From an uncultured Actinomycetes bacterium (GTDB lineage Bacteria; Actinomycetota; Thermoleophilia; Solirubrobacterales; Solirubrobacteraceae), in assembly GCA_963821355.1 (NCBI GenBank), contig CAWGDO010000003.1, forward strand, positions 10,981-74,980: a DNA stretch of 64,000 nt, read 5' to 3'. The notes beneath the pieces were generated by a model, which ran no database searches, had not been told where the DNA came from, and was given only the letters and a program-made list of their open reading frames with translations. Below, in pieces: positions 3,260-60,959 of the stretch. Made by a program: the position numbers and the translations under genes. Position 1 is the stretch's first letter, and each line of letters starts with the position of its first letter.

Positions 3260-3264
3260 CCGGG

Positions 3265-4194
3265 TCACCTCCTTGGGTCACCATAGAGCCGATGCCCCAC
3301 TGATCCATCCTTTTCAGCGTCGCCGAACTCGTCTTCCACCGCCGTGCGCGTGAGTACGAGCACCGGGCAGGGCGCCTGGTGGGTGAGCTTGCTCGACGTG
3401 CTGCCGAGCATCACGCGGCGCACGGGCCCATATCCGCGCGACCCGGTCACCAGCAGATCCAAGTCATTGGCGGCGTAGCACAGCTCGGGCACCGGGCTGC
3501 CGACGACGACCTCGCCGGTCGCGATGTCGCCGAGCTCCTCGAGCAGGTCGTCAAGGCGCTCCTGGGCCTCCTCGCGCGTCGCGGCGGCGCGCTCCTTCCA
3601 GTCGCGGTCGTAGCCGAGCCCCTCGCCGCCGGGCGTCGGCGGCTTCAGCACGAGGATCACGCGCAGCCGCGCGCCGATCGCGGCGGCGAACTCGGCGGCC
3701 AGGGTCGCCGCGGCGTGCGATTCCAGCGAGCCGTCATAGCCGACGCCGATCGTCCGGATGTCCCCGCCGTGCTCGGCGTAGCGGCGCGGCGCGACAATGA
3801 CCGGGCAGTGGGCTCCGTGCAGCGCGCCGGCGGTCACGTCGCCCGCCAGTACGCGCCCGATCGGGCCGCGGTGGTCCGAGCCGACCACGATGAGGTCGCT
3901 TTCGTGCCACTTGGCCGCCATGTGCAAAGCGCGACCCGGCGAGCCGTCCGGCAGCGCCATCGTGTGAGCGGTGATCCCGGCGCGTTCGAGCTCGTCCGCG
4001 ATGAGGCCCTGCGCGTTGCCGTGCAGGACGCTCTCGAAGTCCGGGGTCGAGCCGCGCGGGACGAAGAAGTCATAGGGATAGGCGTGAACTGCGACCAGCT
4101 CGCCGCCGAACAGCCGGCGGAGTCGCTCGCCGAGGGCGAGCGCGTCACGGCCGCCCTCGCGGCCGTCGATGCCGACGACGATCGTGTTGAACAC
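3265..4194 (-). CDS. Universal stress protein, tandem UspA domains
   Basis: MFNTIVVGIDGREGGRDALALG... and GSRGYGPVRRVMLGSTSSKLTHQAPCPVLVL. Paralogue of the adjacent USP. Confidence 0.8.
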   Translation of the reverse strand: MFNTIVVGIDGREGGRDALALGERLRRLFGGELVAVHAYPYDFFVPRGSTPDFESVLHGNAQGLIADELERAGITAHTMALPDGSPGRALHMAAKWHESDLIVVGSDHRGPIGRVLAGDVTAGALHGAHCPVIVAPRRYAEHGGDIRTIGVGYDGSLESHAAATLAAEFAAAIGARLRVILVLKPPTPGGEGLGYDRDWKERAAATREEAQERLDDLLEELGDIATGEVVVGSPVPELCYAANDLDLLVTGSRGYGPVRRVMLGSTSSKLTHQAPCPVLVLTRTAVEDEFGDAEKDGSVGHRLYGDPRR

Positions 4195-4281
4195 GGCCTG
4201 CTCCTCTCGTCCGGGTGCCCCTCATCGTCGCCCGCGGCTAAGCGCACGCCATCAGCACTGACGTGTGAATCGCGTGCGGGA

Positions 4282-4304
4282 AGTCCGCACCGTCCGGGCG
4301 GACT
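4282..4304. promoter_or_regulatory. Candidate operator: inverted repeat AGTCCGC-N9-GCGGACT in the USP / MMPL divergent intergenic region
   Basis: gggAAGTCCGCaccgtccggGCGGACTacgg read directly. The half-site resembles the DosR-box half-site AGTCCC, and the same half-site occurs at 41798-41830. Confidence 0.3.
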
Positions 4305-4500
4305 ACGGTCACCCGCCCGTCGCCGCCACGGATGGCGCGCGGTGGCAGCGGGCGTAGCGTCACCGTGAACCATCTGAATAGGAGGAGACCCTTGCCCGCT
4401 GTCCGCCGTCCGCTCGGGAACGGCATTCCGAAGCGCACACGGCGAGGGTCCATACCCCGTGTCGTGGCCGGCGCACGCGCCGCGCCGGAGGTCTAGAACC

Positions 4501-7762: not shown

Positions 7763-9564
7763 CCACAAGAGCCCCCATCCCACACGCCGACGTCGCAACG
7801 AAGACGCTGCCTGCCCTGCTGCGGGCAGCGATCGGCTCCCACTCGGGAGTGGCGCTGCGCTCCCCGTCGGCCACCGATGCCGGCGCGCTGACGTTCACCG
7901 ACGTCGCGCGCGCCGGCGACGAGATCGCCGCCGGCCTGGTGGCACTCGGCATCGAGCCCGGCGATCGCGTCGCGATCCTGTCCAGCACGCGCGCCGAATG
8001 GACGCTAGCCGACCTCGGCTCGCTCTGGGCGGGCGCCACGGTCGTGCCGATCTACAACACCAACTCGCCAGAAGAGTGCGAATACGTGCTGGCGCACTCC
8101 GCCTCACGTGCCGTCTTCTGCGAGGACGCCGCGCAGCTCGAGAAGGTCGACGCCGTGCGCGAGCGCTGCCCAGAGATCGAGCACCGCATTCTGCTCACCG
8201 GAGCAGCGGCCGACGGCGCGATGACCCTGGACGAGCTGCGCGAGCGCGGCCGCGGGCCGCAGACGGCGGCCGTCGTCGCCGCGCGAACCGCGGCCATCGG
8301 CCCCGACGCCATGGCCACGCTCGTCTACACGTCGGGCACGACCGGCCCGCCGAAGGGCTGCATCCTCACCCACGCCAACCTGCTTTCGACCGTGCAGATG
8401 TACCGCGAGCGCCTGGAGCTTGGGGCCGGCATGAGCGCCTACCTGTTCCTGCCGCTCGCGCACGCGCTCGCCCGCGTCACACAGCTGGTCGTGCTCATGG
8501 TCGGCGGCGAGATCATCTTCTGGCGCGGCGATCCCAAGCAGATCGTCGACGAGCTCTCCGAGGCGCATCCGACGCACTTCCCGTCGGTGCCCCGGGTCTT
8601 CGAGAAGATCCACACCACCATCCTCGGCGGCGTCGAGGAGCAGAGCCGGGTCAAGCGGCTCGTGTTCTCGTGGGCCGTCTCCGAAGGCGCGCGAGCCCGG
8701 CGCCGCGAGCGCGCCGGTGCACCGCCCGGCAGGCTGGCGCGTCGGCGCCATGCGCTGGCGGACCGGCTCGTGCTGTCCAAGGTGCGCGCCGCCTTCGGCG
8801 ACGGCCTGCACGTGGCGCTCACGGGCGCCGCGCCGATCGGCGCCGAGATCCTCGAGTTCTTCGACGCCTGCGGCGTGCTCATCCTCGAGGGCTACGGCCT
8901 CACCGAGAGCTGCGCCGCGTCGACGCTGAACACGATGCGCGAGCACCGTTTCGGCACCGTCGGGCGCCCGCTCCCCGGCACGGAGGTCCGCGTCGGGGCC
9001 GACGGCGAGTTGCTGTTGCGCGGCCCGCACGTCTTCGCCGGCTACTACCGCGACGACGAAGCCACGAGCGAGACGCTCGAGGATGGCTGGCTGCGCACGG
9101 GCGATCTCGGATCGGTCGACGACGACGGGTTCGTGCGCATCACCGGGCGCAAGAAGGAGCTGATCATCACCTCCAACGGCAAGAACATCTCGCCGACCAA
9201 CATCGAGGAGCTCCTGCGTGAGACCCGCTGGATCTCGCAGGCGATCGTCTTCGGCGACAACAAGCCGTATCTCGTCGCGCTGCTGACACTCGACCCCGAC
9301 GAGGCGGTCAAGCTGGCCGCGCGCGTCGGCGCTCCGGCCGGCGACCTCGCGGCACTGTCCCGCCATCCCGGCGTTCGTGGCGAGCTGCAGGCCGCGGTCG
9401 ACGCGGTGAACCAGCGGCTCGCCCGCATCGAGCAGATCAAGCGCTTCGCGATCCTCGACCACGATCTCAGCCAGGCCGCCGGCGAGCTCACGCCGACGCT
9501 CAAGATCAAGCGCCCGGTGGTGACCGAGCGCTACCACGACCTCGTCGAGCAGCTGTACGCCTGA
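7759..9564 (+). CDS. fadD: Long-chain fatty-acid--CoA ligase (AMP-binding, FadD-like)
   Basis: TSGTTGPPKG AMP-binding motif, GYGLTE, TGDLG...RKKELII, LKIKR. ATGA overlap with the MMPL stop. Confidence 0.85.
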   Translation: MTTRAPIPHADVATKTLPALLRAAIGSHSGVALRSPSATDAGALTFTDVARAGDEIAAGLVALGIEPGDRVAILSSTRAEWTLADLGSLWAGATVVPIYNTNSPEECEYVLAHSASRAVFCEDAAQLEKVDAVRERCPEIEHRILLTGAAADGAMTLDELRERGRGPQTAAVVAARTAAIGPDAMATLVYTSGTTGPPKGCILTHANLLSTVQMYRERLELGAGMSAYLFLPLAHALARVTQLVVLMVGGEIIFWRGDPKQIVDELSEAHPTHFPSVPRVFEKIHTTILGGVEEQSRVKRLVFSWAVSEGARARRRERAGAPPGRLARRRHALADRLVLSKVRAAFGDGLHVALTGAAPIGAEILEFFDACGVLILEGYGLTESCAASTLNTMREHRFGTVGRPLPGTEVRVGADGELLLRGPHVFAGYYRDDEATSETLEDGWLRTGDLGSVDDDGFVRITGRKKELIITSNGKNISPTNIEELLRETRWISQAIVFGDNKPYLVALLTLDPDEAVKLAARVGAPAGDLAALSRHPGVRGELQAAVDAVNQRLARIEQIKRFAILDHDLSQAAGELTPTLKIKRPVVTERYHDLVEQLYA

Positions 9565-30552: not shown

Positions 30553-30741
30553 CTAGAAGAAGCCGAGCGGGTTGGGGTCATAGCTGACGAGCAGGCACTT
30601 GGTCTGCGTGTAGTGGTCGAGCATCATCTTGTGCGTCTCGCGGCCGACGCCCGAGGTCTTGTAACCGCCGAACGCGGCGTGTGCGGGGTACAGGTGGTAG
30701 CAGTTGGTCCATACCCTGCCCGCCTGGATCCCGCGGCCCAT
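30553..30741 (-). pseudogene. C-terminal ~60-aa remnant of an aldehyde dehydrogenase
   Basis: [12 protein letters not shown]...[12 protein letters not shown] is the extreme C-terminus of the ALDH family. No ALDH-like sequence exists upstream, and homology ends at an inverted repeat. Confidence 0.6.
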
Positions 30742-32595: not shown

Positions 32596-32985
32596 GCGAC
32601 GCGCGGCGGCTCACGAGCTGCGGAGAACCACGCGGTGCCCTTTCGGTGGGTCCGCGCGATCAATCGGGTCTTACTGGGTGGCGAGGACGCCGGCGGCGAC
32701 GTGACCACTGGGCCTGGCGAGTGGCACCGCCCGGTGGCGGCCACCTACGCGGCCCATCCTTCGCTCACGGTCGCGGCCCTGTCTTCGATCAGGCGGGTCC
32801 GACTCCCGCACTCGCCACTCAGCTGCGACCACGTCGAGGCCTTCGCGCCGCCGTCCGTGGTCCAGGCCCGCCGCCAACGACGGATTGCGGCTCTTCCGCA
32901 GGCTGAAGGCGCGGTCGACCCGGATGGCGGCCCGTCGTGCGATGCCTAGGCTCGGATCATGTACTCCGAGTCCGAGGTCGCCGAC

Positions 32986-33891
32986 ATGTTCACCACCATC
33001 GTCGTCGGAGTCGACGGGCTCCCGGGAGGTCGCGACGCGCTCGTGCTGGCGCAGCACATCGCGGACCTCGCCGGTGGAGACCTCGTCGCCGTCCACGTGC
33101 ATCCCTACGAGCCGTTCCCGCTGCGCGGCCTGCGCACGGACGTCGAAGCGCTGGCGCACGAGGAGGCGCAGGCGCTGCTCGAAGGCCAGCTCGCCGAGGC
33201 CGGCGTGCCGGCCCGGGCGATCGCGACCCCCGAGACGTCCCCGGGCCGGGGCCTGCACCGGATCGCCGACGGGCTCGATGCCGATCTAATCGTCATTGGC
33301 TCGCCGCATCGCGGCCCGCTCGGCCGCGTCATCGCCGGCGACACCGCGCGCGCCGTCATCCAGGGCGCCACGCGGCCTGTCCTCGTGGCGCGCCAGAGCG
33401 CGGCGACGCCGTTCGCCGGCCAGGTCATCGGCGTCGGCTACGACGGCTCGCCCGAGAGCCGCGTCGCGCTGGCCTGGGCGGGACGCTTCGCGCTCGCCGT
33501 CGGCGCCACCGTCCACGTCCTCTGCGCGGCCGAGCCCCCGCAGGGGTTCTCGCCCAGCATCTCCTACGGCATCAACTGGGTGGCTCTCGCTCCCGAGCGT
33601 CGCGAGTACGCCGAGACGATCGTCGCCGAGGCCGTGGCCGAGCTCGGCAACGGCGCCACCGGCGAGGCGGTCGTCGGCGTGGCACGCGAGGAGCTCGTCA
33701 GGCTCTCCGAGCGCGTGGACCTCCTGGTCCTCGGCTCGCGCGGCTACGGTCCCGTTCGCCGCGCCCTGCTCGGCGGCTCCGCGGACCGGGTCGTCCACGA
33801 AGCGGCCTGCCCGGTGATCGTCGTCCCGCGCGGCGCCTGCGAGGACCATGCGGCCGAGCACAGAGCGGCGGACGAGGTCACGGCCGGTTGA
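32986..33891 (+). CDS. Universal stress protein, tandem UspA domains
   Basis: MFTTIVVGVDGLPGGRDAL...GSRGYGPVRRALLGGSADRVVHEAACPVIVV. Confidence 0.8.
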   Translation: MFTTIVVGVDGLPGGRDALVLAQHIADLAGGDLVAVHVHPYEPFPLRGLRTDVEALAHEEAQALLEGQLAEAGVPARAIATPETSPGRGLHRIADGLDADLIVIGSPHRGPLGRVIAGDTARAVIQGATRPVLVARQSAATPFAGQVIGVGYDGSPESRVALAWAGRFALAVGATVHVLCAAEPPQGFSPSISYGINWVALAPERREYAETIVAEAVAELGNGATGEAVVGVAREELVRLSERVDLLVLGSRGYGPVRRALLGGSADRVVHEAACPVIVVPRGACEDHAAEHRAADEVTAG

Positions 33892-34481: not shown

Positions 34482-34970
34482 TCAGCGCCGCGAAGCGCTG
34501 AGCTCGGAGGCGAGCTCGGCGACGGCCCGCTCGACGGCGGGGCTCAGGCGCTCGCCGGCCCTGAAGCTCGCGCCCTCGACCGCATAAACGTCGAGCTGAT
34601 CCGGGAGGCGCCCCAGCGCCCGCGCCAGCTCGATGGCGTCCGAGACTCCGAACGCGTGCGTCGACGAGCGCAGGGCGCGCACCGGCAAGGCGTCGGCCCC
34701 GGCGTCGAAACGCCGGATGGTGCCCGGCGCCGCCCCCGACTCGGCGGCGTCGACGACGACGACGTGCTCGGCCCCGGACCACGCGTCCATCAGCGCCGTG
34801 GCATCTCCCTCGACCTCGCGCACGTCGACCCCGGTGGGCGCCAGCGCGCGCACGCGCCGCGCGACGGCGAGGCCGGCGGCGTCGTCGCCGCGCCAGCCAT
34901 TGCCGACGCCGATGAGGATCACTCGCGGTCGATCTCCAGGCGCAGGAAGTGCGTCGCGCACGAGATGCAC
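34482..34970 (-). CDS. Hydrogenase maturation endopeptidase (HycI/HoxW family)
   Basis: [18 protein letters not shown] and HxFG motifs of the hydrogenase C-terminal-processing protease. Start uncertain because it overlaps the large-subunit 3' end. Confidence 0.65.
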
Positions 34971-36208
34971 GGGTCGTAGCTACGCACCGCCTGCTCGCAG
35001 CGCAGGCGCAGCTCGTCGTCGTCGAGATCGACGTGGCGCTGGACGAACCCGTGCAGGCTCTGCTCGATGCGGCCCTGGTTCTGCGAGGTCGGCGGGACGA
35101 TGCGGGCATCGACGATGGTGCCCTCGGCGTCGATCTCGTAGCGATGCCACAGCATCCCGCGCGGCGCCTCGGTCCAGCCGAACCCGACGCCAGCGCGCGG
35201 CACGACCTCGGCGGCCGGCGGATCGGGGGGCTCGTAAGCATCGAGCAGGCGCAGCGCCTCGTCGAGCGCGTAGAGGATCTCCACCGCGCGGACGACGATG
35301 CTGCGGAACGGGTTGCGGCACACGGCCTCCAGCCCTGCCGCGTCGGCCGCCTCGCGCGCACCGGGTGACAGGCGGTCGCGGTTCAGGGCGTAGCGCGCGA
35401 GCGGGCCGACGAGATAGCGCGTGCCGTCGAGCAGGCGCGAGTGCAGCGCCGTGGAGTGCGGCACCTGCTCTTCGACGACGTACTCGTCGTAGTCCGCGGG
35501 CGCGAGGTCCAGGCCCGTGCTGGACACCAGCCGGCCGGACTCGATGGCGTAGACGTCGGGGTCGCGCAGCGCGAGGAAGACGAAGTCCTCCTCGAAGTCC
35601 GGGAACGGCAGCCCGGCCGTCCACGCCACCGCCTCGCGCGCGAACTCGCGCGCGCGCTCGAGCTGCTCAACGACCGGCGCCAGCTCGGCACGCGTCGGCG
35701 CGCGGTAGAAGCCCCCGACGCGGACGTTGATCGGGTGGATCTCGCGCCCCCCGATCACGCGCATGAGCGCGTTGCCGGCTTTCTTGAGCGCCAGCGCCGA
35801 TTCCACGATCCCGGGGTGGTCGCCGGCCATCTCGAAGGCGTGCGAGTAGCCGAGGAAATCCGGCGCGTGCAGCATGAAGACATGCAGCGCGTGGCTCTCG
35901 ACCCACTCGCCGCAGTAGAGCATCCGACGCAGGGCGCCGACCTGCTCGGGGACCTCGACGCCGCAGACGTCCTCCATCGCCGCGATCGAGCTCATCTGGT
36001 AGGCGACCGGGCAGATGCCGCAGATGCGGGCGGTGATGTCGGGGACCTCGTTGAAGCGCCTCCCGCGCAGGAACGCCTCGAAGAAGCGCGGCGGCTCGTA
36101 GATGCGCAGCTTGACGTCCTGCACCTGGCCGTCGCGCACGCGGACCTCCATGGCGCCCTCGCCTTCCACGCGGGCGAGCACCTCGGTGAGGATCTCGCGC
36201 TCAGCCAC
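34919..36208 (-). CDS. hydA: [NiFe]-hydrogenase large subunit, group-3b (sulfhydrogenase alpha)-like
   Basis: N-terminal [10 protein letters not shown] and C-terminal DPCISCATH Ni-Fe ligand motifs. GTG start whose junction with the delta stop reads GTGGCTGA. Confidence 0.85.
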
Positions 36209-36974
36209 GGCGCGCCTCGCTCTCCGCGCGGAACTGCGGCGCGCCCGCGTAGAACGTGCGGTAGAGCCGCACGACGTCACGCTCGGGCAGACCGTGCCTG
36301 GTGAGCCAGCTGCCGAGCGAGCCCGGGTTCGGCTGCTCCATCGGCCCGAAGCACCCGTAGCAGCCTCGGTGGTAGCTGGGGCACAGCGCGCCGCAGCCGG
36401 CGTGCGTGACCGGGCCCATGCACGCCGTCCCGTGGGCGACCATCACGCAGACATTGCCGCGGCGTTTGCATTCCACGCACACGCTGTACGCGCCGATCTG
36501 CGGCTTGCGCTCGTTGAGGTAGGCGCTGATCACCTCGAGCAGCTGGCCCTTGTCGGGCGGGCAGCCGTTGAGCTCGAAGTCGACCGCGACGTGTTCGGAC
36601 GCCGGAGTGGAGTACGCGAGCGTCGAGATGTACTGCGGGCTCGCGTAGACGACCGAGACGAAGTCCTCCACGTCGGCGAAGTTGCGCAGCGCCTGGATGC
36701 CGCCCGCGGTGGCGCACGCGCCGATGCAGACCAGGCGACGGGAGCGCGCGCGGATCTCGCGGATGCGCTCGGCCTCCTCGGAGGTCGTGATCGAGCCCTC
36801 GACGATCGACAGGTCGTACTCGCCCTCGGCGCGCTCGAGCCCGGCCTCGGTGAAGTAGGCGATGTCGATCTCGCCCGCAAGGGCGATGAGCTCGTCCTCG
36901 CAATCCAGCAGCGAAAGCTGGCAGCCGTCGCACGAGGAGAACTTCCAGACTGCGAGGCTGCGTCGCTCGCTCAT
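36201..36974 (-). CDS. hydD: [NiFe]-hydrogenase small subunit (group-3b delta)
   Basis: [23 protein letters not shown] proximal-cluster cysteines and a NuoB-like fold. ATGA overlap with the gamma stop. Confidence 0.8.
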
Positions 36975-37789
36975 AGCTCGGGCACCCGCATGAGCGGCTC
37001 GACGATGTCGCGTCGCAGGACCGGCCCGTCCTTGCACATGAAGAGCGGACCGAGCTGGCAATGCCCACAGTGTCCCGTGGCACAGGTCATGCTGCGCTCG
37101 AGCGAGAGCCAGATGCGGTCGTCGGTCAAGCCCGCGTCCTGCAGCGCAACAGCCGCGAAGCGCATCATCACCTCGGGGCCGCACATCATCGCCACTGCGC
37201 TGCCCGGGTCAAAGACGGCGCGCGGGATGAGCCGCGTGACGACGCCAACGCGCCCGCGCCAGTCGCTGTCGGCGACGTCGACGGTCACGTCGACATCGGC
37301 GTCGAACCGCGCCCGCCAGCCTTCGAGCTCCTCCACGTAGAGCAGCTCGGCCGGGGAGCGCCCGCCGTACAGAATCGACACGTCCCCGAAGCGCTCGCGG
37401 TTGGCAAGAAGCTCATGGATGACCGGGCGCAGCGGTGCGAGGCCGATGCCGCCGGCGACCACGACGACATCACGGCCCTCGGCCTCGCGCACGGGCCACG
37501 CCGTCCCGAACGGGCCGCGAACGCCGAGCACCTCGCCCGGCTTTGCGGCGCAGATCGCCTCGGTCACCGCGCCGACGGCGCGCACCGTGTGCACGACCGC
37601 GCCGTCGCCGCCGATGCTGCTGATCGAGATCGGCGCCTCGCCCACGCCGAACGCGTAGAGCATCGCGAACTGCCCAGGAGAGAACGGCTTGCCGGGCGGC
37701 GCGCCCGCGGGCTCGAGGCGCAGCGTCCAGGTGTCCCCGGTCTCGCGCTGCTTGTCAGCAACACGGTAGGCCGTGGGCAGCTCAGCCAC
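36971..37789 (-). CDS. hydG: Hydrogenase gamma subunit (FAD/NAD(P)-binding, 2Fe-2S, oxidoreductase)
   Basis: FNR-like fold ([14 protein letters not shown]) and a C-terminal [12 protein letters not shown]...C iron-sulfur motif. GTG start overlapping the upstream stop as GTGGCTGA. Confidence 0.8.
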
Positions 37790-38249
37790 CGCCCGCCCTT
37801 CCGTACATGTCGAGGAGCCGCAGCCGGGTGTCCTGGAGACGCTCGACGAAGACGCCCGACAGCAGCTTGAGCATGTCGTAACCCAGGGCCGGGTCGGCCT
37901 CGCACTTGCCGCGCAGGCACGCACCGTCGAGCGAGATGGCGTAGGTCGTCCCCACGGAGCGCGCGTCGAAGGCCGTGCGGTACGGCGGCACGAGCCACGA
38001 CCAGCCGAGTAGCTCGCCGTCGTGCAGCGTCTGCAGCACCACCGCTCCGCGCCCCGGGACCTCGGTCTCCAGCGCGACCGCGCCCTCGCGGATGACGTAG
38101 AACGCGTTGGCCGGCTCGCCCTCGCGCATGATCCGCTCGCCGGGCTGGAAGATGCAGTTGCGTGCACAGCCCGCGACCGTGTCGCGGTGGTCGGGCGCCA
38201 GCGCTTGCAGCGCCGGGACCTCGCTCAGCAGCTCCTCAATCGTCCGCAT
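37782..38249 (-). CDS. Stand-alone cyclic-nucleotide-binding (CAP effector) domain protein embedded in the hydrogenase operon
   Basis: 155 aa. ...[28 protein letters not shown]...[12 protein letters not shown]...RTAFDARSV... is the cNMP-binding beta-roll pattern. No HTH or other output domain. Overlaps hydB 3' and hydG 5'. Confidence 0.75.
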
Positions 38250-39375
38250 GGCCGCCCTCCCGCAGATCGGTGGCGCGGATGGCCGCGGTCTCCTCGGTGA
38301 TGTCGATCGCGACCGGGCACCAGGTGATGCAGCGGCCGCAGCCCACGCACCCCGAGGTGCCGAACTGGTCGATCCAGGTCGACAGCTTGTGGGTCATCCA
38401 CTGCCGGTAGCGCGAGCGCCCGGTTCGGCGCACGCTGCCGCCGTGCACGTAGGAGTGCTCGAGCGTGAAGCACGAGTCCCAGAGGCGTGCGTGCTCGGTC
38501 TCGCCGCCCGCGAGGTCGGTGGTGTCCTCGACCGTGCTGCAGAAGCAGGTCGGGCACACCATCGTGCAGTTGCCGCAGCTCAGGCAGCGGTCGGCGACCT
38601 CGTCCCAGCGCGGGTGGTCCAGGTTGCCCTGCAGCAGGTCGCGGATGTCGGTGACGTCGAGCGTCCGGCCCATCGAGGCCGCGGCCCGCGCGGCCGCCTC
38701 GTCGGGTGCGCGCTCCTCGTCGCCCTCCGCCGCGCGATGCTCAATCGCGGCGAGGACTTCGGCGCCGCGCTCGCTCCCGACCTCCACGACGAAGCGGTGC
38801 CCGTCGTCGTCGAGGAGCTCGGTCAGCGCCAGGTCGAAGCCGCCGGTCACGCGCGGCCCGGTGTCCATCGAGACGCAGAAGCAGGTCCCGCCGGCGCGCC
38901 CGCAGTTGACGGCTACGAAGAACGCGTCGCGCCGACGCGCCTCGTAGTCGGGGTCGGCGTAGCGGTCGCCGATGAAGACGCGGTCCTGGATCGTGACGGC
39001 GTGCAGGTCGCACGAGCGCACGCCGAGGAAGGCGTAGCGCGGCGGCGGCTCGGGAGCCTGCACGTCGAGCCCTCCGTCGAGCCCGCGCCGCGCGCGCCAG
39101 ATGCTGAGCTGGGGGGGGAAGAGGAAGCGCTTGAGCGAGTCGTGGCCGACGGTATGCGCGAAGAGCGCTCCGTCGCCGGTGCGCTGAAGGCGGAAGCTGC
39201 CGCCCTCCTGGACGTCGACCCAGCCGCCGGGAAGCTCGTCGGCGCTGTGCACCTCGTCGTAGACCAGCGACTGCGAGCGGACCGTCGGTCCGATGACCGT
39301 GTAGCCGCGCTGCCAGAGCGCGTCCAGCAGGCCGTCGAGCTCAGCTCGCTCGATGATCGCGGGGGCGGCGTTCAT
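38236..39375 (-). CDS. hydB: Hydrogenase beta subunit (4Fe-4S, HydB/sulfhydrogenase beta-like)
   Basis: Cys clusters [16 protein letters not shown] and [15 protein letters not shown] start at 39375. Confidence 0.8.
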
Positions 39376-39487: not shown

Positions 39488-40435
39488 ATGGCCGATTCGA
39501 TCGATCCCCCGCTCTTCGAGCGCATCGTCGTCGGCGTCGACGGCGAACGGGGAGGCCGCGACGCGCTCGCCCTCGCAGCGCTGCTACAGCGCGCGGGCGG
39601 CGGAGAGCTCATCGCCGTCCACGTCCACGCTCCCGCGCACACCGTCGACCTGTCGCACCCTGGGCGCGCGGAGGCGGCGCTCGCCGCGGAGCAGTTCGAG
39701 CTGCTCGAGCGCGAGCTCGCCGCGGCGGGCCTGCAGGCGCACGCCACCGTCATGACCGAGAACTCGCCGGCGCGCGCGCTGCACACGGCCGCCGAGCGCC
39801 ACGCCGCGCAGCTCATCGTCGTCGGGGCCTGCCACCTCACCGGTGCCGAGCGCGTCGTGGCCGGCGACGACGCGACGGGGACCCTGCACGGCGCACCATG
39901 CGCCGTCGCGGTCGCCCCGCGTGGCTTCGCCTGCTCCGGCGGCGAGCTGCGGCTCGTCGGCGTCGGCGTCGACGACTCGCCCGAGGCAAGCGCGGCCCTC
40001 GAGCTCGCGCGCCGCCTCGCCCGGCGAGTCGGCGCCGTCATCCGTGCGACGACCGTCGTCCACCTGGAGCACCCGTTCGGGTCGTTCACTGCGTGGGAGC
40101 CGGCGTGGCCGGTCGACGTGCCCGACGCGCGGGACACGGGCCAGCGGCTCCTCGACCGCCTTCTGGCCGATCCCGAGCACAACGCGACCGGCGAAGTCGC
40201 GGTCGGCACGACGTGGGAGCAGCTCGCCTCGCGCAGTGGCGACCTCGACCTCCTCGTCCTCGGCGCGCGCAACCACAGCCCGCTGCGACGCCTCGTGCTG
40301 GGCAGCACCTCGACGAAGCTCGTGCGCCACATCCCCTGTCCGCTGCTCGTGCTCCCGCGAACCGCCGACGCCCGCCGCGACCAGGCCGCGACCGGCGCGA
40401 TCGCCGCTCGCGAGGCGCACGTCGCGCGACGGTGA
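39488..40435 (+). CDS. Universal stress protein, tandem UspA domains
   Basis: MADSIDPPLFERIVVGVDGERGGRDAL...GARNHSPLRRLVLGSTSTKLVRHIPCPLLVL. Confidence 0.8.
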   Translation: MADSIDPPLFERIVVGVDGERGGRDALALAALLQRAGGGELIAVHVHAPAHTVDLSHPGRAEAALAAEQFELLERELAAAGLQAHATVMTENSPARALHTAAERHAAQLIVVGACHLTGAERVVAGDDATGTLHGAPCAVAVAPRGFACSGGELRLVGVGVDDSPEASAALELARRLARRVGAVIRATTVVHLEHPFGSFTAWEPAWPVDVPDARDTGQRLLDRLLADPEHNATGEVAVGTTWEQLASRSGDLDLLVLGARNHSPLRRLVLGSTSTKLVRHIPCPLLVLPRTADARRDQAATGAIAAREAHVARR

Positions 40436-40650: not shown

Positions 40651-41550
40651 TCACCCTGACGAGGCGATGAGCGCCTCGAGCGGCGCCTGCACACCGCGCG
40701 GCAAGACGATGACCGGGCAGTGCGCCTCCGCCACCACCCGCCGCGAGACGCCGCCCAGCAGGACGGCGCGCACGGGCCCATAGCCGCGCGACCCGCACAC
40801 CAGCAGATCGAGATTCTCCGAAACCCTGATGAGCGACTGCGCCGGATCCTCCAGGAACGCGTCGACCTGCACGGGCACGTCGTCCTCGAGCGCACCGACC
40901 GCGGTGCGCGCCGCGGCCTCGGCCCGCACTCGATGCTCGCCCTCAACCGCGTCGAAGCCCTTGTGCTGCTCGGTCTCGGCGTACCAGCCCGTGCGGACCT
41001 TGGCCACGGTGAGCACCCGCAGCGTCGCTTCAGCGCGGCGCGCCAGCGCGAACGCACCGCGGAGCGCCTCGCGCCCTTCCTCGCTGTCGACGTAGGCAAC
41101 GCCGATCGTGCGCAGTCCCCCGCCGGCCTGCCAGCCGTGCGGCACAACCGCGATGGGACACGGCGCGCCATGCATCAACCGCTCGGCGGTGGAGCCGGGC
41201 AGCACGCGGCCGACGGCACCACGGTGCGTCGAGCCGACGACGAGCAGCCCGGCATCCTCGGCCTCCGCTGCCTCGTGCAGAGCGCGGGCGGCGCTCGTGC
41301 TGGCCAGGTCGCGGCACTGCGCCGCGATGCCCTGTGCGTGCAACTCGCCGCGGACCTCGTCGAGCGTCTCGCCGACGTCCGCGACGAGCTCCTCAGCCAT
41401 CTGCCCGGCGATGAGCTCGTCATCGCCGGCGTCGTGGACCGAAGCGATGACGAGCTCGGCACCCGTGAAGCGGGCCGCCGCGACGCCGAAGTGGACCGGA
41501 GCGCGGTCGTGGGTGTGCGGGTCGTAGCCGATGAGGATGGGCTTGCTCAT
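40651..41550 (-). CDS. Universal stress protein, tandem UspA domains
   Basis: MSKPILIGYDPHTHDRAPV...GSRGYGPVRAVLLGGVSRRVVAEAHCPVIVL. Start overlaps the ACP stop (TGATG). Confidence 0.8.
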   Translation of the reverse strand: MSKPILIGYDPHTHDRAPVHFGVAAARFTGAELVIASVHDAGDDELIAGQMAEELVADVGETLDEVRGELHAQGIAAQCRDLASTSAARALHEAAEAEDAGLLVVGSTHRGAVGRVLPGSTAERLMHGAPCPIAVVPHGWQAGGGLRTIGVAYVDSEEGREALRGAFALARRAEATLRVLTVAKVRTGWYAETEQHKGFDAVEGEHRVRAEAAARTAVGALEDDVPVQVDAFLEDPAQSLIRVSENLDLLVCGSRGYGPVRAVLLGGVSRRVVAEAHCPVIVLPRGVQAPLEALIASSG

Positions 41551-41765
41551 CAGGCTGTCGGGGCGCCGGAAACTGTGCGCGCGTCGAGGTAGCGCGGGAT
41601 CGCGGCCATCGTGGTCAGCTCGCCGTAGTCCTGCTCGGGGATGTTGATGCCGGTCGCCTCGTTGAGGGCGATGACGATGTTCAAGATGTCCATGGAGTCG
41701 AGCTCGAGATCCTCGCGCAGCAGAGCACCGTTGTCGAGCGTCGCACGATCGATGTCGGGCGCCAC
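41550..41765 (-). CDS. Acyl-carrier-protein-like carrier protein (71 aa)
   Basis: ...LREDLELDSMDILNIVIALNEATGINIPEQDYGELTTMAAIPRYL. The DSMD phosphopantetheine-attachment context and length match the ACP/PCP fold. Confidence 0.6.
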   Translation of the reverse strand: MAPDIDRATLDNGALLREDLELDSMDILNIVIALNEATGINIPEQDYGELTTMAAIPRYLDARTVSGAPTA

Positions 41766-41799
41766 GTCGAGCGCCGCGTCGACGACCTCGCTGTGGAAA

Positions 41800-41830
41800 G
41801 TCCGCAGACGTGCAGCACGTATCTGCGGAC
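41800..41830. promoter_or_regulatory. Candidate operator: perfect 9-bp inverted repeat GTCCGCAGA-N13-TCTGCGGAC in the ACP-USP / OsmC divergent intergenic region
   Basis: ggaaAGTCCGCAGAcgtgcagcacgtaTCTGCGGACgtg read directly. The AGTCCGC half-site is shared with 4282-4304. Confidence 0.35.
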
Positions 41831-41863
41831 GTGCCGGACCCCTCAGTGGCGTTCACTGTGGAC

Positions 41864-42274
41864 ATGAGCCTCACCGCCACCGCCCGGTCGGTCGGCAACA
41901 GTTTGCGCCAGGACGTCCTGGTGGACAATCGCCACCGGCTGGTCACCGACGAGCCGCAGCGGCTCGGGGGCACCGACACGGGACCGGCGCCGCACGAGCT
42001 GCTGCCGGCGGCACTGGCTGCCTGCATCGCCGTGACGATCCGGATGTACGCCCGGACGAAGGGCTGGGAGCTCGGCGAGCTGAGCGTGGACGTCGTCTAC
42101 GACAACGTCTCGACGCCCCGGCGCTTCGACGTCACCATCGACCTGCCGCGCGGGCTGAGCCCCGAGCAGGTGCGGCGTCTGATGCGCGTCGCCGAGGCCT
42201 GCCCCCTGCGCCGCTCCATCGAGGCCGGCATGGTCTTCGACGAGCACCTGCCGCGCGGGCGCGACGCCGCCTGA
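41864..42274 (+). CDS. OsmC/Ohr-family peroxiredoxin-like protein
   Basis: Typical OsmC length (~136 aa) with two conserved cysteines (..AACIAV.., ..AEACPL..). Confidence 0.7.
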   Translation: MSLTATARSVGNSLRQDVLVDNRHRLVTDEPQRLGGTDTGPAPHELLPAALAACIAVTIRMYARTKGWELGELSVDVVYDNVSTPRRFDVTIDLPRGLSPEQVRRLMRVAEACPLRRSIEAGMVFDEHLPRGRDAA

Positions 42275-52021: not shown

Positions 52022-52888
52022 TCAATCATTCGGCGACATGCCATCCGGCGTCACCACTGCCCCGGGTCGGGAGTTCCCACGGATCTTCGCGCCGGCTCCG
52101 CGCGCAACGATTATCACCGGGCACGCCGCTGTCCGGATCAGGCGACCCGACGTGGCGCCCGCCAGCACCGCGTGCAGCGGTCCGTAGCCGCGCGAGCCGG
52201 TGACGAGCAGATCGAGCGAGGACGAGGCGCGCGCGAGCTCGTCGACCGGCTCGCCGCTGCGCACCAGCGGCCGAGCCTGCACGGCGGGGTCGAGCCGCGC
52301 GACGACGCGCGACAGGTCATCGGCGGCGCCGCTTTCGCCGGGCGGCTCGACGACGCGAATGACGTCCAGCCGGGCGCCGAGCCGGCGGGCGACGTCCTCG
52401 GCCGTCGCGAGCGCTCGGTGCGCCTCCGCCGAGCCGTCGTAGGCGCAGCCCACCGCCGCGAAGGGCACGTCCCCGCGCTCGCCGTATCCGCGTGGCGCGA
52501 TCGCAACCGGACACGGCGCGCTGTGAAGCAGGTGCTCGCCCGTGCTCCCGGGCAGGATCCGGCGCAGCGCGCAGGCGTGGCTCGAGCCGACCACGATAAG
52601 CGCCGCGCGCTCCTCGGTCGCGACCTCCTGGAGCCCCCAAGCCGGATGAGCGGCCGCGACGGCGCGGGTCACGGTTCCAGGCGAGCCGGAAAGACGGGCG
52701 AGGGTCGCCTCGGCGTCTGCTCGCAATGCCCGCGGGTAGGCCGCGCCACCCTCGCCTGCGTAGACTGGATCGCCGGGGTAGACGCACACGAGCAGCAGCC
52801 TGGCCGAGGGCTCGGCGAGGCCCCGTGCGAGCGCAAGCGCGTCGACGGAACGCTCGGAATCCTCGACGCCTACGACGACCGTTTCCAT
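52022..52888 (-). CDS. Universal stress protein, tandem UspA domains
   Basis: METVVVGVEDSERSVDALALARGL...GSRGYGPLHAVLAGATSGRLIRTAACPVIIV. Confidence 0.8.
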   Translation of the reverse strand: METVVVGVEDSERSVDALALARGLAEPSARLLLVCVYPGDPVYAGEGGAAYPRALRADAEATLARLSGSPGTVTRAVAAAHPAWGLQEVATEERAALIVVGSSHACALRRILPGSTGEHLLHSAPCPVAIAPRGYGERGDVPFAAVGCAYDGSAEAHRALATAEDVARRLGARLDVIRVVEPPGESGAADDLSRVVARLDPAVQARPLVRSGEPVDELARASSSLDLLVTGSRGYGPLHAVLAGATSGRLIRTAACPVIIVARGAGAKIRGNSRPGAVVTPDGMSPND

Positions 52889-55355: not shown

Positions 55356-57359
<2,004 letters not shown>

Positions 57360-57363
<4 letters not shown>

Positions 57364-57860
57364 GCTTGGGCACGGCCCGCGACGCGCTGCTCGACGACGC
57401 GCGCCGCCAGGCGCAGGAGATCGTCGCCGCCGGAGAGGCCGAGGCCGACCAGCGCCTGCGCGCGGCACGGCGCGACGCCGACGAGCTGCTCGCGCGCGCC
57501 CGCGCGGAGGGCGAGGCCGAGGGCCGGCGCGCGGCCATCCGCGCGCAGGCCCGGCAGCGCTTCGGCGCGCACATGCAGGTGCTCGCGGCCCGCCGGGCGT
57601 CCTACGACGCGCTTGCGCAGCGCGCCCGCGCCGACGCGCTGGCGCTGCGCGCGGAGCCCGGCTATCCGCAGCTGCTCGAGCTGCTCACCGCGGCGGCCCG
57701 CGCCGACCTCGGCGCCGACGCCGAGGTGACCGTCGATCCGCCCGGACTCGGGGGCGTGATCGCGCGGGCGGGCACGCGCGCGGTCGACTACACCCTGGTC
57801 GCGATCGCCGAGCGCTGCGTGCAGGACCTCGGGCCGCGGGTGGCGGAGCTGTGGAGCTGA
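57360..57860 (+). CDS. atpE: A/V-type ATPase subunit E
   Basis: N-terminal charged coiled-coil typical of subunit E, and operon position. Confidence 0.55.
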
Positions 57861-59583
57861 CCGCGCCCACCGTCACCCGTGTCAGCGGGCCCGTGGTCGA
57901 GATCGCGGGCATGGCGGGCGCTCACCTGCTCGACCTCGTCGAGGTCGGCCCCGATCGCCTCGCCGGCGAGGTCATCTCGCTGAGCGGCGAGGCGGCGGTC
58001 GTCCAGCTTCACGAGTACACCGGCGGCCTGGGACCCGGCACCGAGGCGCGGCTGGGCACCGGGCCGCTGACCGCCGAGCTCGGACCAGGGCTGCTCGGGG
58101 CGGTGTTCGACGGGATGCTGCGACGGCTCGACGCGCTCGGCGACCGACTTCCTCCCGGGACGCGAAGCCGCGACCCTGCCCCTCGAGCGCCGCTGGCACT
58201 TCACCCCGGCCGCGAGCGAGGGCGCACACGCCGGCGCCGGGACCGTGCTCGGCACGGTGCCCGAGAGCGAGGCGATCGTGGCGCGCGTGCTCGTGCCCCC
58301 GCACGTCGCCGGGACGATCGAGTGGCTCGCGCCGGAAGGCGACTACACGGTCGCCGAGCCCGTCGCCCGGATCGACGGCCACGACGTCCGGCTGTCGCAC
58401 CCGTGGCCGCTGCGCCGGCCGCGGCCCAGTGGGATCCGACTCGAAGCGTCGGTGCCGCTGAGCACCGGGCAGCGCGCGCTGGACCTACTCTTCCCGGTCG
58501 CGCGCGGGTCGACGGCCTCGGTGCCGGGCGGCTTCGGCACCGGCAAGACCGTGCTGCTGCAGCAGGTGGCCAAGTGGTGCGACGCGGACGTGATCGTCTA
58601 CGTCAGCTGCGGCGAGCGCGGCAACGAGCTGGCCGACGTCCTGCACGAGATCGCGACGCTCGAGGACCCGCGGACCGGGCGCTCGCTGCTGGACCGCACG
58701 GTGCTCGTCGCCAACACCTCGAACATGCCGCTGATGGCGCGCGAGGTCAGCGTCCACGCGGGCGTGACGGTGGCCGAGCTCTACCGCGACATGGGCTACG
58801 ACGCGCTCGTCATCGCCGACTCGACGTCGCGCTGGGCGGAGGCGCTGCGGGAGATCGCGTCGCGCACCGGGGAGCTGCCCGCCGAGGAGGGCTATCCGGC
58901 GAGCCTCGCGCCGACGCTCGCCTCGTTCTACGAGCGCGCGGCGCGCGTGCAGACGCTGGCCGGCGCGGTCGGCTCGGTGACCATCCTCGGCGCGATCTCG
59001 CCGCCCGGCGGCGACATGGCCGAGCCGGTGACCGCACACACCGAGCGCTTCGTGCGCGCGGTCTGGTCGCTTGATCGCGACCTCGCCTACGCGCGCCACT
59101 ACCCGGCCGTGAGCTGGACCGCCTCGACGTCACGCGACGTCGCCCAGGTGTCGCGTTGGCACGCCGACGAGGGCGGCGACGCCGCGTGGGGCGAGCGCCG
59201 CGCGCGAGCGGTCGCGCTGCTGGCCGAGGCCGATCGCGTGCTGGCGGTCGCCGAGCTCGTCGGGGCGGCCTCGCTGCCCGATCGCGAGCGCGTCGTGCTG
59301 CTCACCGGCCGCCTGCTGCGCGAGGCGGTGCTGCAGCAGAACGCGCTCAGCGACAACGACGTCTGGTCCGCGCGCGCCCAAGCAGGCCGCGCTGCTGGCG
59401 ATGGTGCTGGCCATCCACGACCGCGCGATTGAGCTGATCGGCGCGGGGGTGCCCGGCGCGCGCATCGAGGAGCTCGACTTCTCCGACGCCGCGCGAGCGC
59501 GCGACCGCGCGGGCCCCGAGGACGCCGCCGGCGTCGACGCGATCTCGCGACGAGCTTTGGTGCGCATGGAGGCGCTCTCGTGA
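57851..59583 (+). pseudogene. atpA: A/V-type ATPase catalytic subunit A, disrupted by two +1 frame shifts (~58148 and ~59379)
   Basis: Aligns end-to-end with Thermus AtpA across three frames: ..GPGLLGAVFDGMLRRL.. | ..LGTVPE..GGFGTGKT (Walker A)..VYVSCGERGNE..DSTSRWAEALREI..PPGGDMAEPVT.. | ..KQAALLAMVLAIHDRAIELIGAGV... GTG start. Confidence 0.7.
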
Positions 59584-59631
59584 GGGCCCCGGTCGAGCAC
59601 ACGCGCGTGGACTCCGTCCGCGGCCCGCTGC

Positions 59632-60959
59632 ATGGTCGTCGGTGACGTCGCGGGCGTCGGCTGGGACGAGATCGCCGAGATCCGCCTGGCCTCAGGCGAG
59701 CGGCGCCACGGTGTCGTCCTCGACGTCCACGACGACCTGGCGGTGATCCAGGTCGTCGAGGGGACCGACGGCGTCGGGACCGACGGGGCTGCGGGTGGCG
59801 TTCACCGGCGCGCCGCTGCGCGTCCCGGTCGGGGAGGACTGGCTGGGCCGCGTGTGCAACGGCCGCGGCGAGCCGCTCGACGGCGGCCCGCCGATCCTCG
59901 GTGAGCTGCGCGCAGGTCGCCGGCGACCCCATCAACCCGTGGCGGCGCGACGCCCCGAGCGAGCCGGTGCTCACCGGAGTGTCGGCGATCGACGGCCTGG
60001 CCACGCTCGTGCGCGGACAGAAGCTCCCGATCTTCTCGGTCGGCGGCCTGCCGCACCTCGAGCTGGCCGCTCAGATCGCAGCGCAGGCCCGCGCCGGCGA
60101 GGGCGAGCCGTTCGCGGTGGTCTTCGCCGCGATCGGGATCACCCACGCCGACGCGGCGGAGGTCGATGCCATCCTCGCCACGCGCGCCGAGGGCGACCTC
60201 GTCGTGCTGCTCAACACGGCCGACGACCCGCTCGTCGAGCGGCTCGTCACGCCGCAGATCGCCCTCACCGTGGCCGAGCACCTGGCCTTCGAGCGTGGCC
60301 GCCACGTGCTCGTCGTGATGGCCGACCTCACCAGCTACTGCGAGGCGCTGCGCGAGGTCGCCGCCTCGCGCGGCGAGATCCCGTCGCGGCGCGGCTATCC
60401 CGGCCACCTGTACAGCGACCTGGCGGCGCTGCTCGAGCGCGCCGGCAGGATCAAGGAAAAGCGGGGCTCGGTGACACAGCTTCCGGTCCTGACCATGCCC
60501 GCCGGCGATGTCAACCACCCGGTTCCCGACACCGTCGGCTACATCACCGAGGGCCAGCTCGTGCTGGCGCCCGAGCTGCACGCGCAGGGCATCTACCCGC
60601 CCTTCGACCCCCTCGGCTCGCTCTCGCGTTTGATGCGCCTGGGCGCCGGCCCGCGGCGCACGCGCGACGATCACCTCGAGCTGGCAGCGCAGCTCTATTC
60701 CCTGGCGGCCGAGGCGCGCCGCGCCCGCGAGCTCGCCGAGGTGCTCGGCGAAGACGCGCTGTCCGACGCCGAGCGCCGCCGCCTCGCGTTCGCGCAGGCG
60801 CTGAACGCCGACTTCATCGGGCAGGAGCGCGGCGAGCGGCGATCGCTCGAGGAGACCCTGGATCGCGGCTGGAGAGTCGTGTCGCGGCTGCCGCGCGCCG
60901 AGCTGACGATGCTCTCCGACGCCTCGCTCGACGCCCACTACGACGGGGCCGGCCGATGA
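59632..60959 (+). pseudogene. atpB: A/V-type ATPase subunit B, disrupted by two +1 frame shifts (~59787 in a GGGG run and ~59915)
   Basis: Three frames together align with Thermus AtpB: MVVGDV..AVIQVVEGTDGVG | ..TGAPLRVPVGEDWLGRVCNGRGEPLDGGPP.. | ..TGVSAIDGLATLVRGQKLPIFS..FAAIGI..ADLTSYCEALREV..GYPGHLYSDLA..GSVTQLPVLTMPAGDVNHPVPD... Confidence 0.7.

Follow-up and report, generated by a model that had tools for sequence, protein, structure and literature searches.

A probable 5'-truncated acyl carrier protein relic beside a tandem universal stress protein gene, and a recurring 17-bp putative promoter motif, in an uncultured Actinomycetes bacterium

In a 64,000-nucleotide stretch of DNA from an uncultured Actinomycetes bacterium (the window), a small open reading frame (ORF) resembling an acyl carrier protein (ACP) lies between a universal stress protein (USP) gene and a divergent OsmC-like gene. 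The USP gene (40651..41550, minus strand) encodes 299 amino acids and matches PF00582 (E = 6.8e-40) in two stretches, and thus contains two Usp domains in tandem. Its ortholog in one relative (L003; related loci are designated here by L numbers) follows an intact ACP operon. The small ORF (41550..41765, minus strand) encodes 71 amino acids, begins with GTG, and retains a serine (Ser24) within the sequence DSMD. Its TGA stop codon (41552-41550) overlaps the ATG of the USP gene (41550-41548) to form TGATG (41548-41552). The 20 nt before this ATG contain no GGAG-like run, and the USP gene lacks its own Shine-Dalgarno sequence; by sequence, the two reading frames have the layout of a translationally coupled pair. 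The OsmC-like gene (41864..42274, plus strand) encodes a protein that is 86% identical to the OsmC protein encoded divergently from the intact operon in L006 and L012. Between the two divergent units is a perfect 9-bp inverted repeat, GTCCGCAGA-N13-TCTGCGGAC (41800..41830), with arms at 41800-41808 and 41822-41830. An initial annotation of this DNA had described the DSMD-containing ORF, its TGATG overlap with the tandem USP gene, and the inverted repeat in front of the divergent OsmC gene, and all three are present.

The same annotation had suggested comparing the 71-residue protein with PP-binding models, and its score against PF00550 (22.3 bits) does exceed the cut-off of 20.8 bits. NCBIfam ACP models also match the ORF (E ~1e-9, ~37 bits), the equivalog cut-offs of these models being ~70 bits. 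An AF2 model of the protein (pLDDT 81) matches only ACP structures in Foldseek (TM 0.72-0.77), and a helix spanning residues 24-38 begins at Ser24, a column that is invariant in the family alignment. The model contains only three helices (II-IV) instead of a complete four-helix bundle. Alignments of the ORF to ACP profiles begin at profile position ~17-24. The homologs in this family are 86 aa in length with the N-terminus MTTDMTAxVVDALLEVAPD, and the window ORF begins at family residue 16, the first 15 residues (MTTDMTAxVVDALLE, part of helix I) being absent. No in-frame ATG, GTG or TTG is found upstream, and the ORF is thus not the complete carrier protein that had been proposed. Neither a Shine-Dalgarno sequence before the GTG nor a leaderless promoter for this start was found. 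Every residue of the retained part that is invariant in the family is still present, including the serine. A CTG at the position equivalent to Met1 would give an in-frame product of 85 aa, so that some residual expression of the remnant may occur.

In relatives, this ACP is encoded by the last gene of an operon that also encodes an acetate-CoA ligase (NF003313), PDH-like E1alpha and E1beta subunits (TIGR03182 and NF006667, PDH E1 subunits) and a lipoyl E2 protein. Among GTDB genomes, genes for the AMP-ligase, E1alpha, E1beta and E2 are directly upstream of the ACP gene in 62 of the 66 loci with enough flanking sequence. In this arrangement the ACP gene follows the E2 gene without a gap and overlaps it. 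The E2 gene is upstream in 70 of 73 loci, and a USP gene is downstream in 1 of 80. At least 181 species representatives carry the cassette. In L006, L007 and L012 an OsmC gene is divergent from the intact operon. As far as the literature was searched, the cassette appears to be uncharacterised, and nothing specific was found on it in a DosR context. No match to E1 or E2 occurs within the 64 kb window, and the OsmC gene abuts the ACP remnant.

The sequence between the remnant and OsmC belongs to a putative promoter class that recurs in the window and in relatives. The shared cis element is a 17-bp palindrome, GTGCGG-N5-CCGCAC, whose spacing to a CCGATG box, a -10 hexamer and an ATG is fixed. 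The complete layout consists of the palindrome, N17-19, the CCGATG box, N17-18, the -10 hexamer, N6 and the ATG. The motif recurs before USP, MMPL and OsmC genes and before the intact operon. A PWM trained on relatives only has four matches of at least 15.4 bits in the window, compared with 0.08 expected, and the intergenic matches at this threshold precede tandem USP genes by 58 and 80 nt. The best copy (GTGCGGGAAGTCCGCAC, 4274..4290; 17.4 bits, rank 1) is located between a USP gene (3265..4194, minus strand) and an MMPL-like gene. A complete predicted promoter (32885..32961, plus strand; motif 15.4 bits) precedes the tandem USP gene at 32959..33891 and reads TTGCGGCTCTTCCGCAG-N18-CCGGATGGCG-N17-TAGGCT-N6-ATG. 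The full layout is also present in instances that were not used for training, before MMPL in L012 and before OsmC in L164. In a metagenome scan for TGCGG-N5-CCGCA-N18-20-CCGATG, just 2 of the 124 matches listed (in 120 stretches) have the full layout, so most of the metagenome matches are attributable to chance; one of the two precedes an OsmC ortholog. Judging from conservation, we infer that these regions act as promoters with leaderless starts and that the motif is an activator site.

The motif copy at the ACP locus (CTGCGGACTTTCCACAG on the minus strand, 41791..41807; 10.4 bits, rank 7) is homologous to the motif that, in relatives, precedes the acetate-CoA-ligase operon by ~65 nt. Towards OsmC the layout is complete. 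The predicted OsmC core promoter (41825..41863, plus strand) consists of the box GCGGACGTG (41825-41833), an 18-nt spacer, the putative -10 hexamer TTCACT (41852-41857), 6 nt, and a leaderless ATG, and is organised like the promoter of the L164 OsmC ortholog and the others of this class. In the direction of the remnant and USP only the motif is kept, and the CCGATG box and -10 hexamer are deleted. A scan of 40.5-42.4 kb for sigma-70 and terminator consensus sequences returned nothing.

Of the two arms of the 9-bp inverted repeat, one lies inside the 17-bp motif and the other partly coincides with the box in the -35 region of the predicted OsmC promoter. The repeat would then arise incidentally from two promoter elements, each of which contains TGCGGA. 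Inverted repeats with perfect 9-bp arms and loops of 3-30 nt are also common in this DNA (107 in the window versus 56 +/- 10 in random sequence), and no second sequence close to the complete 31-bp repeat occurs in the window. Given the number of such repeats and the composition of the two arms, we do not retain the earlier assignment of the repeat as an operator of the ACP-USP operon. A role as an RNA hairpin was considered and rejected, the fold z-score (-0.61) being unremarkable.

Upstream of the GTG, the frame of the remnant continues through seven more ACP-derived codons, VVDAALD (41766..41786, minus strand), which correspond to family codons 9-15. From 41786 downstream the window is identical to intact ACP genes at 35 of 42 nt, compared with 2-3 of 22 nt upstream of this position, where the match is instead to the promoter motif found in L009 and L015. 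The deletion junction is at CGAG (41787..41790, minus strand), with the promoter flank CACCGAGGT joined to the ACP sequence GTCGTCGAC, possibly through GT or GGT microhomology. Homology of L093 and L094 to the window likewise begins at 41786. The same junction is found in two independent assemblies, L001 (97.6% identity; an ENA contig) and L002 (99.3% identity; a separate run), and a fourth contig is recorded as containing the ORF. We rejected a reading of the in-frame upstream residues LRTFHSE as a degenerate ACP helix I because the promoters of relatives show the regulatory motif there and because of the low identity of this stretch to ACP 5' ends.

These comparisons establish that sequence has been deleted at this locus and that the ACP gene has been truncated. 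We consider it highly probable that the 71-aa ORF is the 5'-truncated relic of an ACP gene from the five-gene operon, produced by a deletion of ~5.1 kb. The ancestor would have carried the operon with the ACP gene last, OsmC divergent upstream, and USP downstream. The deletion would have fused the sequence just after the upstream 17-bp motif of the operon to ACP codon 9, so that all four enzyme genes were lost, together with the core promoter, the start codon of the ACP gene and part of helix I. It would have left an open 3' part of the ACP gene that ends in TGATG on the USP start, and a motif whose distance is canonical for just one promoter, the divergent leaderless one of OsmC. The window copy itself has presumably lost its function as a carrier, and an intact copy of the operon that is served by the remnant might be present outside the 64 kb window.

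Decay of the ACP gene is also evident in sister lineages. In L011 the attachment serine has been lost through a Ser-to-Phe change (DFMD), and the breakpoint is different. L093-95 contain an in-frame TAG and a 1-nt insertion, and in L092 an independent deletion joins ligase codon 201 to ACP codon 16. The decaying sister remnants still retain TGATG and the USP gene. For the ACP remnant dN is 0.089, versus 0.036 for USP. The dN/dS of the remnant relative to L011 is 0.45 (13 non-synonymous and 9 synonymous substitutions), a small number of changes that is compatible with neutral evolution or weak constraint. The cassette is widespread and is decaying repeatedly in these soil lineages.

The retention of TGATG raises the question of whether the remnant, useless as a carrier, has been kept open as an upstream ORF from which termination and reinitiation feed ribosomes to the USP gene. 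An ORF still reaches TGATG in three lineages with different kinds of damage, and L094 uses an out-of-frame ATG that is put into frame by the 1-nt insertion. Furthermore, the window USP gene has no Shine-Dalgarno sequence, whereas its ortholog in L003 has GGAGG and a 75-nt spacer. However, at 73% G+C chance alone easily keeps frames of 60-70 codons open, the start of the remnant has neither a Shine-Dalgarno sequence nor a leaderless promoter, and the dN/dS of the remnant gives no support either way. We therefore regard this explanation as unlikely. A more speculative proposal, which we think has only a slim chance of being correct, is that the ACP frame has been kept for a new job, either as an upstream ORF for the USP start or as a helix-I-less fragment that binds USP, and that the 17-bp element separately defines a dormancy regulon of this high-G+C actinobacterial lineage under a regulator that does not use the DosR box.

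It is very unlikely that the remnant is a functional stand-alone carrier (of 71 aa, or of 85 aa from the CTG) that forms with USP an acyl-lipid or second-messenger stress module, as had been suggested. The PP-binding match, the ACP-like model, the serine at the start of helix II and the preservation of all invariant residues fit such a carrier, as do the TGATG overlap retained in three lineages and the lipid genes elsewhere in the window. However, this ACP family is almost never found without its E2 and E1 partners, and the cassette is its normal context. The window copy lacks the start codon, part of helix I and a Shine-Dalgarno sequence, and its core promoter was lost in the deletion. Sister remnants have lost the serine or gained a stop and frameshift while USP is conserved, and the USP ortholog in L003 and L006 has its own ribosome-binding site or is unlinked to ACP. 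With the remnant explained as an operon leftover and the palindrome as pieces of the OsmC promoter, no new carrier-plus-stress-protein module is called for.

The inverted repeat had also been interpreted as a DosR/NarL-type operator with altered spacing, common to the ACP-USP unit and to the USP/MMPL pair. In its favour, the gene content of the window parallels that of the DosR regulon in mycobacteria (USPs, hsp20, nitroreductase, pfkB, P-type ATPase, WS/DGAT and hydrogenase), a cis element is common to both loci, and GCGGACTTT is similar to the left half of the Dev box. The second palindrome on which it relied, AGTCCGC-N9-GCGGACT, is indeed present at 4282-4304. The motif copy at 4274..4290 overlaps its left arm and part of its spacer, and the right arm GCGGACT (4298-4304) is outside. 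However, such palindromes are no more frequent than expected by chance, as the window contains 14 occurrences of AGTCCGC versus 22 expected and three of GTCCGC-N0-30-GCGGAC versus 3.4 expected. The arms that relatives conserve are TGCGG/CCGCA, and the supposed DosR-like half-site AGTCC is the variable motif centre in two sites only; the centre is GTTTC or CTTTC in relatives, so AGTCC is not conserved. In the Dev box, GGGACT is contacted in each half of the palindrome, and G5 and C7 are essential in both (PMC3177182). The left half of the window site (CGGACTT) fits this definition, but the right half (CCACAG) does not and lacks AGTCCC, and the half-sites are everted compared with the Dev box. 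The site in relatives, GCGGGTTTCCCGC, lacks the A-C of GGGAC. In all instances examined there is one motif copy per promoter, compared with the two or more tandem boxes of Dev-box promoters. Additionally, the spacings of the two palindromes are unequal (N13 versus N9), and repeats of this kind abound in the window. We therefore give a DosR-type operator very little credence. No HTH, LuxR or response-regulator protein was found among the ~55 ORFs of the window scanned with Pfam. The suggestion of one regulator for the loci at 41.8 kb and 4.28 kb holds to the extent that they share a cis element, but that element is GTGCGG-N5-CCGCAC, neither AGTCCGC nor a DosR box.

Finally, although related long-read MAG contigs contain fragmented genes (L005, L092), the identical junction in the window, L001 and L002 and the ORF in a fourth contig make an assembly artefact from a chimeric or collapsed contig extremely improbable.

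We regard the locus as an ordinary gene relic within an island of the dormancy type. Attributing the odd ACP-USP pairing to gene decay removes a tempting but wrong lead. The promoter architecture, with its 17-bp palindrome, core elements at fixed distances and putative leaderless starts, links USP, OsmC, MMPL and the cassette in this island, and the motif is a concrete handle for regulon prediction in these uncultured Actinomycetes.

As in type II ACPs (PF00550 / TIGR00517), the DSMD serine is at the N-terminus of helix II, and the model superposes on AcpP-type structures. Unlike these proteins, the window ORF is without the first 15 family residues/helix I, a start codon at the family position, and partner enzymes. 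An E1/E2/ACP arrangement (QncN/QncL/QncM, SclQ1-4) has been shown to load a C2 unit onto ACP (PMC6335953). The operon in relatives likewise encodes ThDP-dependent E1alpha/E1beta, a lipoyl/acyltransferase E2 and a small ACP. However, by score its E1 subunits are those of PDH, the operon additionally encodes an acetate-CoA ligase, and NRPS/PKS genes are absent nearby. Compared with the Qnc and Scl cassettes, the window keeps only the 3' part of the ACP gene.

The window USP resembles Rv2623-type tandem USPs, with two PF00582 domains in ~300 aa, and belongs to a set of several paralogs within this dormancy-type island. Nothing unusual was found in the protein, its sole peculiarity being a start on the stop codon of a relic. 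In gene repertoire the island is comparable to the DosR/DevR regulon, and in both a palindromic upstream element is common to several USP genes. However, DosR/DevR sites are tandem 18-20-bp GGGACT-WW-AGTCCC boxes ending near -33, whereas the window motif is a single GTGCGG-N5-CCGCAC copy centred near -65 of a predicted leaderless start.

A 71-aa ORF with a GTG start (41550..41765, minus strand; protein MAPDIDRATLDNGALLREDLELDSMDILN...) had been read in the initial annotation as a carrier protein paired with a universal stress protein (USP), possibly in a stress module. The ORF does match the PP-binding family in Pfam (PF00550), just above the curated cut-off (22.3 bits versus 20.8). It also matches a dozen NCBIfam acyl carrier protein (ACP) models with E values between 1e-9 and 1e-5, although every score falls well short of the model's equivalog cut-off. 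Nearly all of the 53 ACP homologs are 86 aa long, with the N-terminus MTTDMTAxVVDALLEVAPDVD. The first residue of the window ORF corresponds to family residue 16 (V of LEVAPD), and the 29 open codons upstream in the same frame contain no ATG, GTG or TTG. An AlphaFold model built from a 31-sequence alignment (pLDDT 81) places helices at residues 24–38, 44–49 and 55–66. These are ACP helices II–IV, with Ser24 beginning helix II; helix I is absent. Foldseek searches with the model returned only ACPs (TM 0.72–0.77 over 55–61 columns). As modeled, the ORF is a carrier fold minus the first helix. All of the invariant family residues are retained. The stress-module interpretation is mostly wrong, as the ORF is a gene relic, left next to the OsmC promoter by deletion of a conserved gene cassette.

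In every well-assembled homolog locus the ACP is the last gene of a single operon, following genes for an AMP-binding ligase, E1alpha, E1beta and E2. The E2 combines lipoyl, E3-binding and 2-oxoacid_dh domains, and its stop codon overlaps the ACP start. We identified at least 181 ACP relatives among the GTDB species representatives scanned and fetched 80 of their loci. Among the 66 loci whose upstream flank reached 5.3 kb or more, the set to which this test was limited, 62 have all four enzymes in order; E2 lies directly upstream of the ACP in 70 of 73. A USP follows the ACP in only one of the 80. Hosts include Rhodobacterales, Hoeflea, Cellulomonas, Pseudarthrobacter, Acidimicrobiales and uncultured Actinomycetes MAGs. 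The ligase is an acetate-CoA ligase by NCBIfam NF003313 (874 bits, above cut-off) and the E1 subunits are assigned, also above cut-off, to pyruvate dehydrogenase E1alpha (TIGR03182) and E1beta (NF006667); E2 has only below-cut-off NCBIfam matches. Our literature searches turned up no function for the cassette. Its arrangement is like that of QncN/L/M and SclQ1-4, in which a ThDP-dependent E1 works with a lipoyl E2 to load a dedicated ACP with a C2 unit (PMC6335953), and by analogy it may work in a similar way. In Rhodobacterales loci, including those of Sagittula salina (L010/L018), the order is ligase, fused E1alpha-beta, E2 and ACP, a form widespread in marine Alphaproteobacteria. The Sagittula cassette adjoins genes for a P-type cation ATPase and pyruvate-phosphate dikinase, both of which also accompany actinobacterial dormancy islands.

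The intact arrangement in the related loci L006, L007 and L012 consists of a USP on the minus strand, S30AE, OsmC on the minus strand and then, divergently, the ligase, E1alpha, E1beta, E2 and ACP genes. Compared with these loci, the window shows 86% identity in OsmC and 77% in the ACP part, and the four cassette enzymes between the two are missing. No match to E1 or E2 was found anywhere in the 64 kb window. From position 41786 downstream (GTCGTCGAC...) the window shares 35 of 42 positions with intact ACP genes, while the 22 nt immediately upstream match at only 2–3 of 22. Instead, this segment, CTGCGGACTTTCCACAGCGAGG, can be aligned with an element conserved ahead of the ligase gene across four diverged relatives (GTGCGGGTTTCCCGCACCGAGG in L015, GTGCGGGTTTCCCGCACCGACG in L006/L012, CTGCGGCTTTCCCACACCGAAG in L009 and TTGCGGCTTTCCCGTAGCA in L014). 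Together these matches show that approximately 5.1 kb has been lost, from just past the ligase-upstream element through ACP codon 8, with the junction at 41787–41790. An assembly artefact is rejected, as L001 (97.6% identity) and L002 (99.3%), which were assembled independently, share the identical junction.

Three further types of remnant were found in sister lineages. L011, with 93.5% identity across the remnant and USP, breaks at window position 41760 and has DFMD in place of DSMD. The match in L093–L095 (91% identity) starts at the same ACP position, 41786, next to unrelated upstream DNA, and these copies have a 1-nt insertion as well as a TAG, in frame, at LEV. In L092 (6406–7192), beside transposase genes, an independent deletion has joined codon 201 of the ligase to codon 16 of the ACP. 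The ligase and E1alpha are fragmented in L005 (2689–4182), near-identical to the intact L006; the cassette thus decays independently elsewhere. Between the window and L011, dN is 0.089 for the remnant and 0.036 for the USP, and dN/dS is 0.45 (13 non-synonymous to 9 synonymous changes) and 0.30, respectively, which suggests relaxed constraint on the remnant and is not decisive. Because the window copy keeps all invariant residues, its deletion may be recent. A second decayed gene may be the aldehyde dehydrogenase ORF at 30553–30741 (minus strand), which retains only the last ~47 residues and adjoins a DUF779 gene.

The reported TGATG overlap is present: the ATG of the USP (40651..41550, minus strand; 299 aa, two Usp domains) shares a base with the remnant's TGA. 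Its orthologs are the USP downstream of the intact L003/L014 operon (78% identity) and the one across OsmC in L006 (72%). The L003 USP is preceded by a 75-nt spacer with a GGAGG ribosome-binding site. The window clade has lost this spacer; its USP ATG overlaps the ACP stop and has no visible Shine-Dalgarno sequence, so the overlap is derived in this clade. Translation of the USP may now depend on ribosomes reading the relic, a possibility that could rival or complement its interpretation as a deletion remnant.

The perfect 9-bp inverted repeat GTCCGCAGA-N13-TCTGCGGAC (41800–41808 and 41822–41830) and the divergent OsmC-family gene (plus strand, starting at 41864) both exist as described, but the repeat is not supported as an operator of the ACP-USP pair. 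The window contains 107 perfect 9-bp inverted repeats with loops of 3–30 nt versus 56 ± 10 in first-order random sequence, and one in a 100-bp spacer at 73% G+C is unremarkable. The predicted RNA fold is not unusually stable (z = -0.61). The first arm is the right arm of a 17-bp palindrome, GTGCGG-N5-CCGCAC, and the second overlaps the putative OsmC -35-region box. Because TGCGGA is present in both elements, the repeat arises as their by-product. On the plus strand the motif (41791–41807) is followed after 17 nt by GCGGACGTG (41825–41833), after 18 nt by TTCACT (41852–41857) and after 6 nt by the ATG. This predicted promoter layout is exactly that preceding the OsmC ortholog in metagenome contig L164, CTGCGGCTTTCCCGCAC-N17-CCGATGCGC-N17-TTCACT-N6-ATG. 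In L164 (180–520) this promoter has as its divergent neighbour a gene similar to the one that opens the window's hydrogenase operon. The deletion took away the CCGATG box and -10 hexamer on the ACP side, where a consensus scan detected no sigma-70-like promoter.

The ligase promoters of the relatives have a fixed layout: the 17-bp palindrome, N18–19, CCGATG(A/G)C, N17, TACGGT or TAGCGT, N6 and ATG. We infer that these elements represent, in order, a site for an upstream factor with its centre near -65, a box in the -35 region, a -10 hexamer and a leaderless start. A PWM built solely from the four diverged relatives gave four hits of at least 15.4 bits in the window versus 0.08 expected. The strongest (4274–4290, 17.4 bits) is 80 nt before the USP at 3265..4194. 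Another (32885–32901, 15.4 bits) lies 58 nt before the tandem USP at 32959..33891 and has the full layout, TTGCGGCTCTTCCGCAG-N18-CCGGATGGCG-N17-TAGGCT-N6-ATG. The remaining hits are within a Lon-like gene (48063, 15.4 bits) and the hydrogenase small-subunit gene (36256–36272, 16.4 bits), the latter conserved but coding. This hydrogenase copy is 48 nt before the large-subunit start and is kept in L001 and L015. The ACP-side copy (41791–41807) ranks seventh at 10.4 bits. Outside the training set, full-layout instances also precede the MMPL gene of L012 and the OsmC ortholog of L164. Extra pentamers flank the motif (GTCCG-N4-GTCCG-N2-CGGAC at 4283–4303; CGGAC-N4-CGGAC at 41826–41839) and are either auxiliary half-sites or chance. 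While the relic is an ordinary finding, the cassette and this promoter class are modestly useful by-products.

The second palindrome noted initially, AGTCCGC-N9-GCGGACT, is present at 4282–4304, flanked by the tandem USP (3265..4194, minus strand) on one side and by an MMPL-like gene (4459–7783, plus strand) on the other. Relatives match the latter in two reading frames (4963–5505 and 7148–7783), which suggests a frameshift or split gene; a strong Shine-Dalgarno sequence and TTG precede it at ~4380–4395. AGTCCGC repeats are not enriched in the window: AGTCCGC occurs 14 times versus 22 expected, and GTCCGC-N0–30-GCGGAC three times versus 3.4. The AGTCC falls in the variable centre of the motif at the two sites (ACTTT, ACTTC; GTTTC or CTTTC in relatives). 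The proposal of one regulator for both loci was right in spirit, as they share a cis element, but that element is neither AGTCCGC nor a DosR box. No HTH regulator was found among the ~55 window ORFs scanned.

The window (1–64000) is a dormancy-type gene island with six USP genes (2363–3268, 3265–4194, 32959–33891, 39488–40435, 40651–41550 and 52022–52672) and a group-3b-like [NiFe] hydrogenase operon (34482–39375, minus strand) that includes a cyclic-nucleotide-binding-domain subunit (37782–38249). It also encodes PfkB, a P-type ATPase with two TrkA proteins, WS/DGAT, a phosphoribosyltransferase-hydrolase, GAPDH, a TreT-like protein, flavodoxin, Hsp20, nitroreductase, a Lon-like (LonC-like) protease, CBS/BON proteins, DUF2267 and a V/A-type ATPase operon (55356–60959). 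This gene content matches that of the mycobacterial DosR regulon, and the regulatory instinct behind the DosR comparison was therefore reasonable. However, DevR contacts GGGACT in both halves of its site, G5 and C7 being essential in each, and the promoters it regulates all carry two or more boxes in tandem, with the proximal box located near -33 (PMC3177182). In the promoter class described here the conserved bases are instead the arms TGCGG and CCGCA, five bases apart and in one copy per promoter, with AGTCC variable and no tandem boxes.
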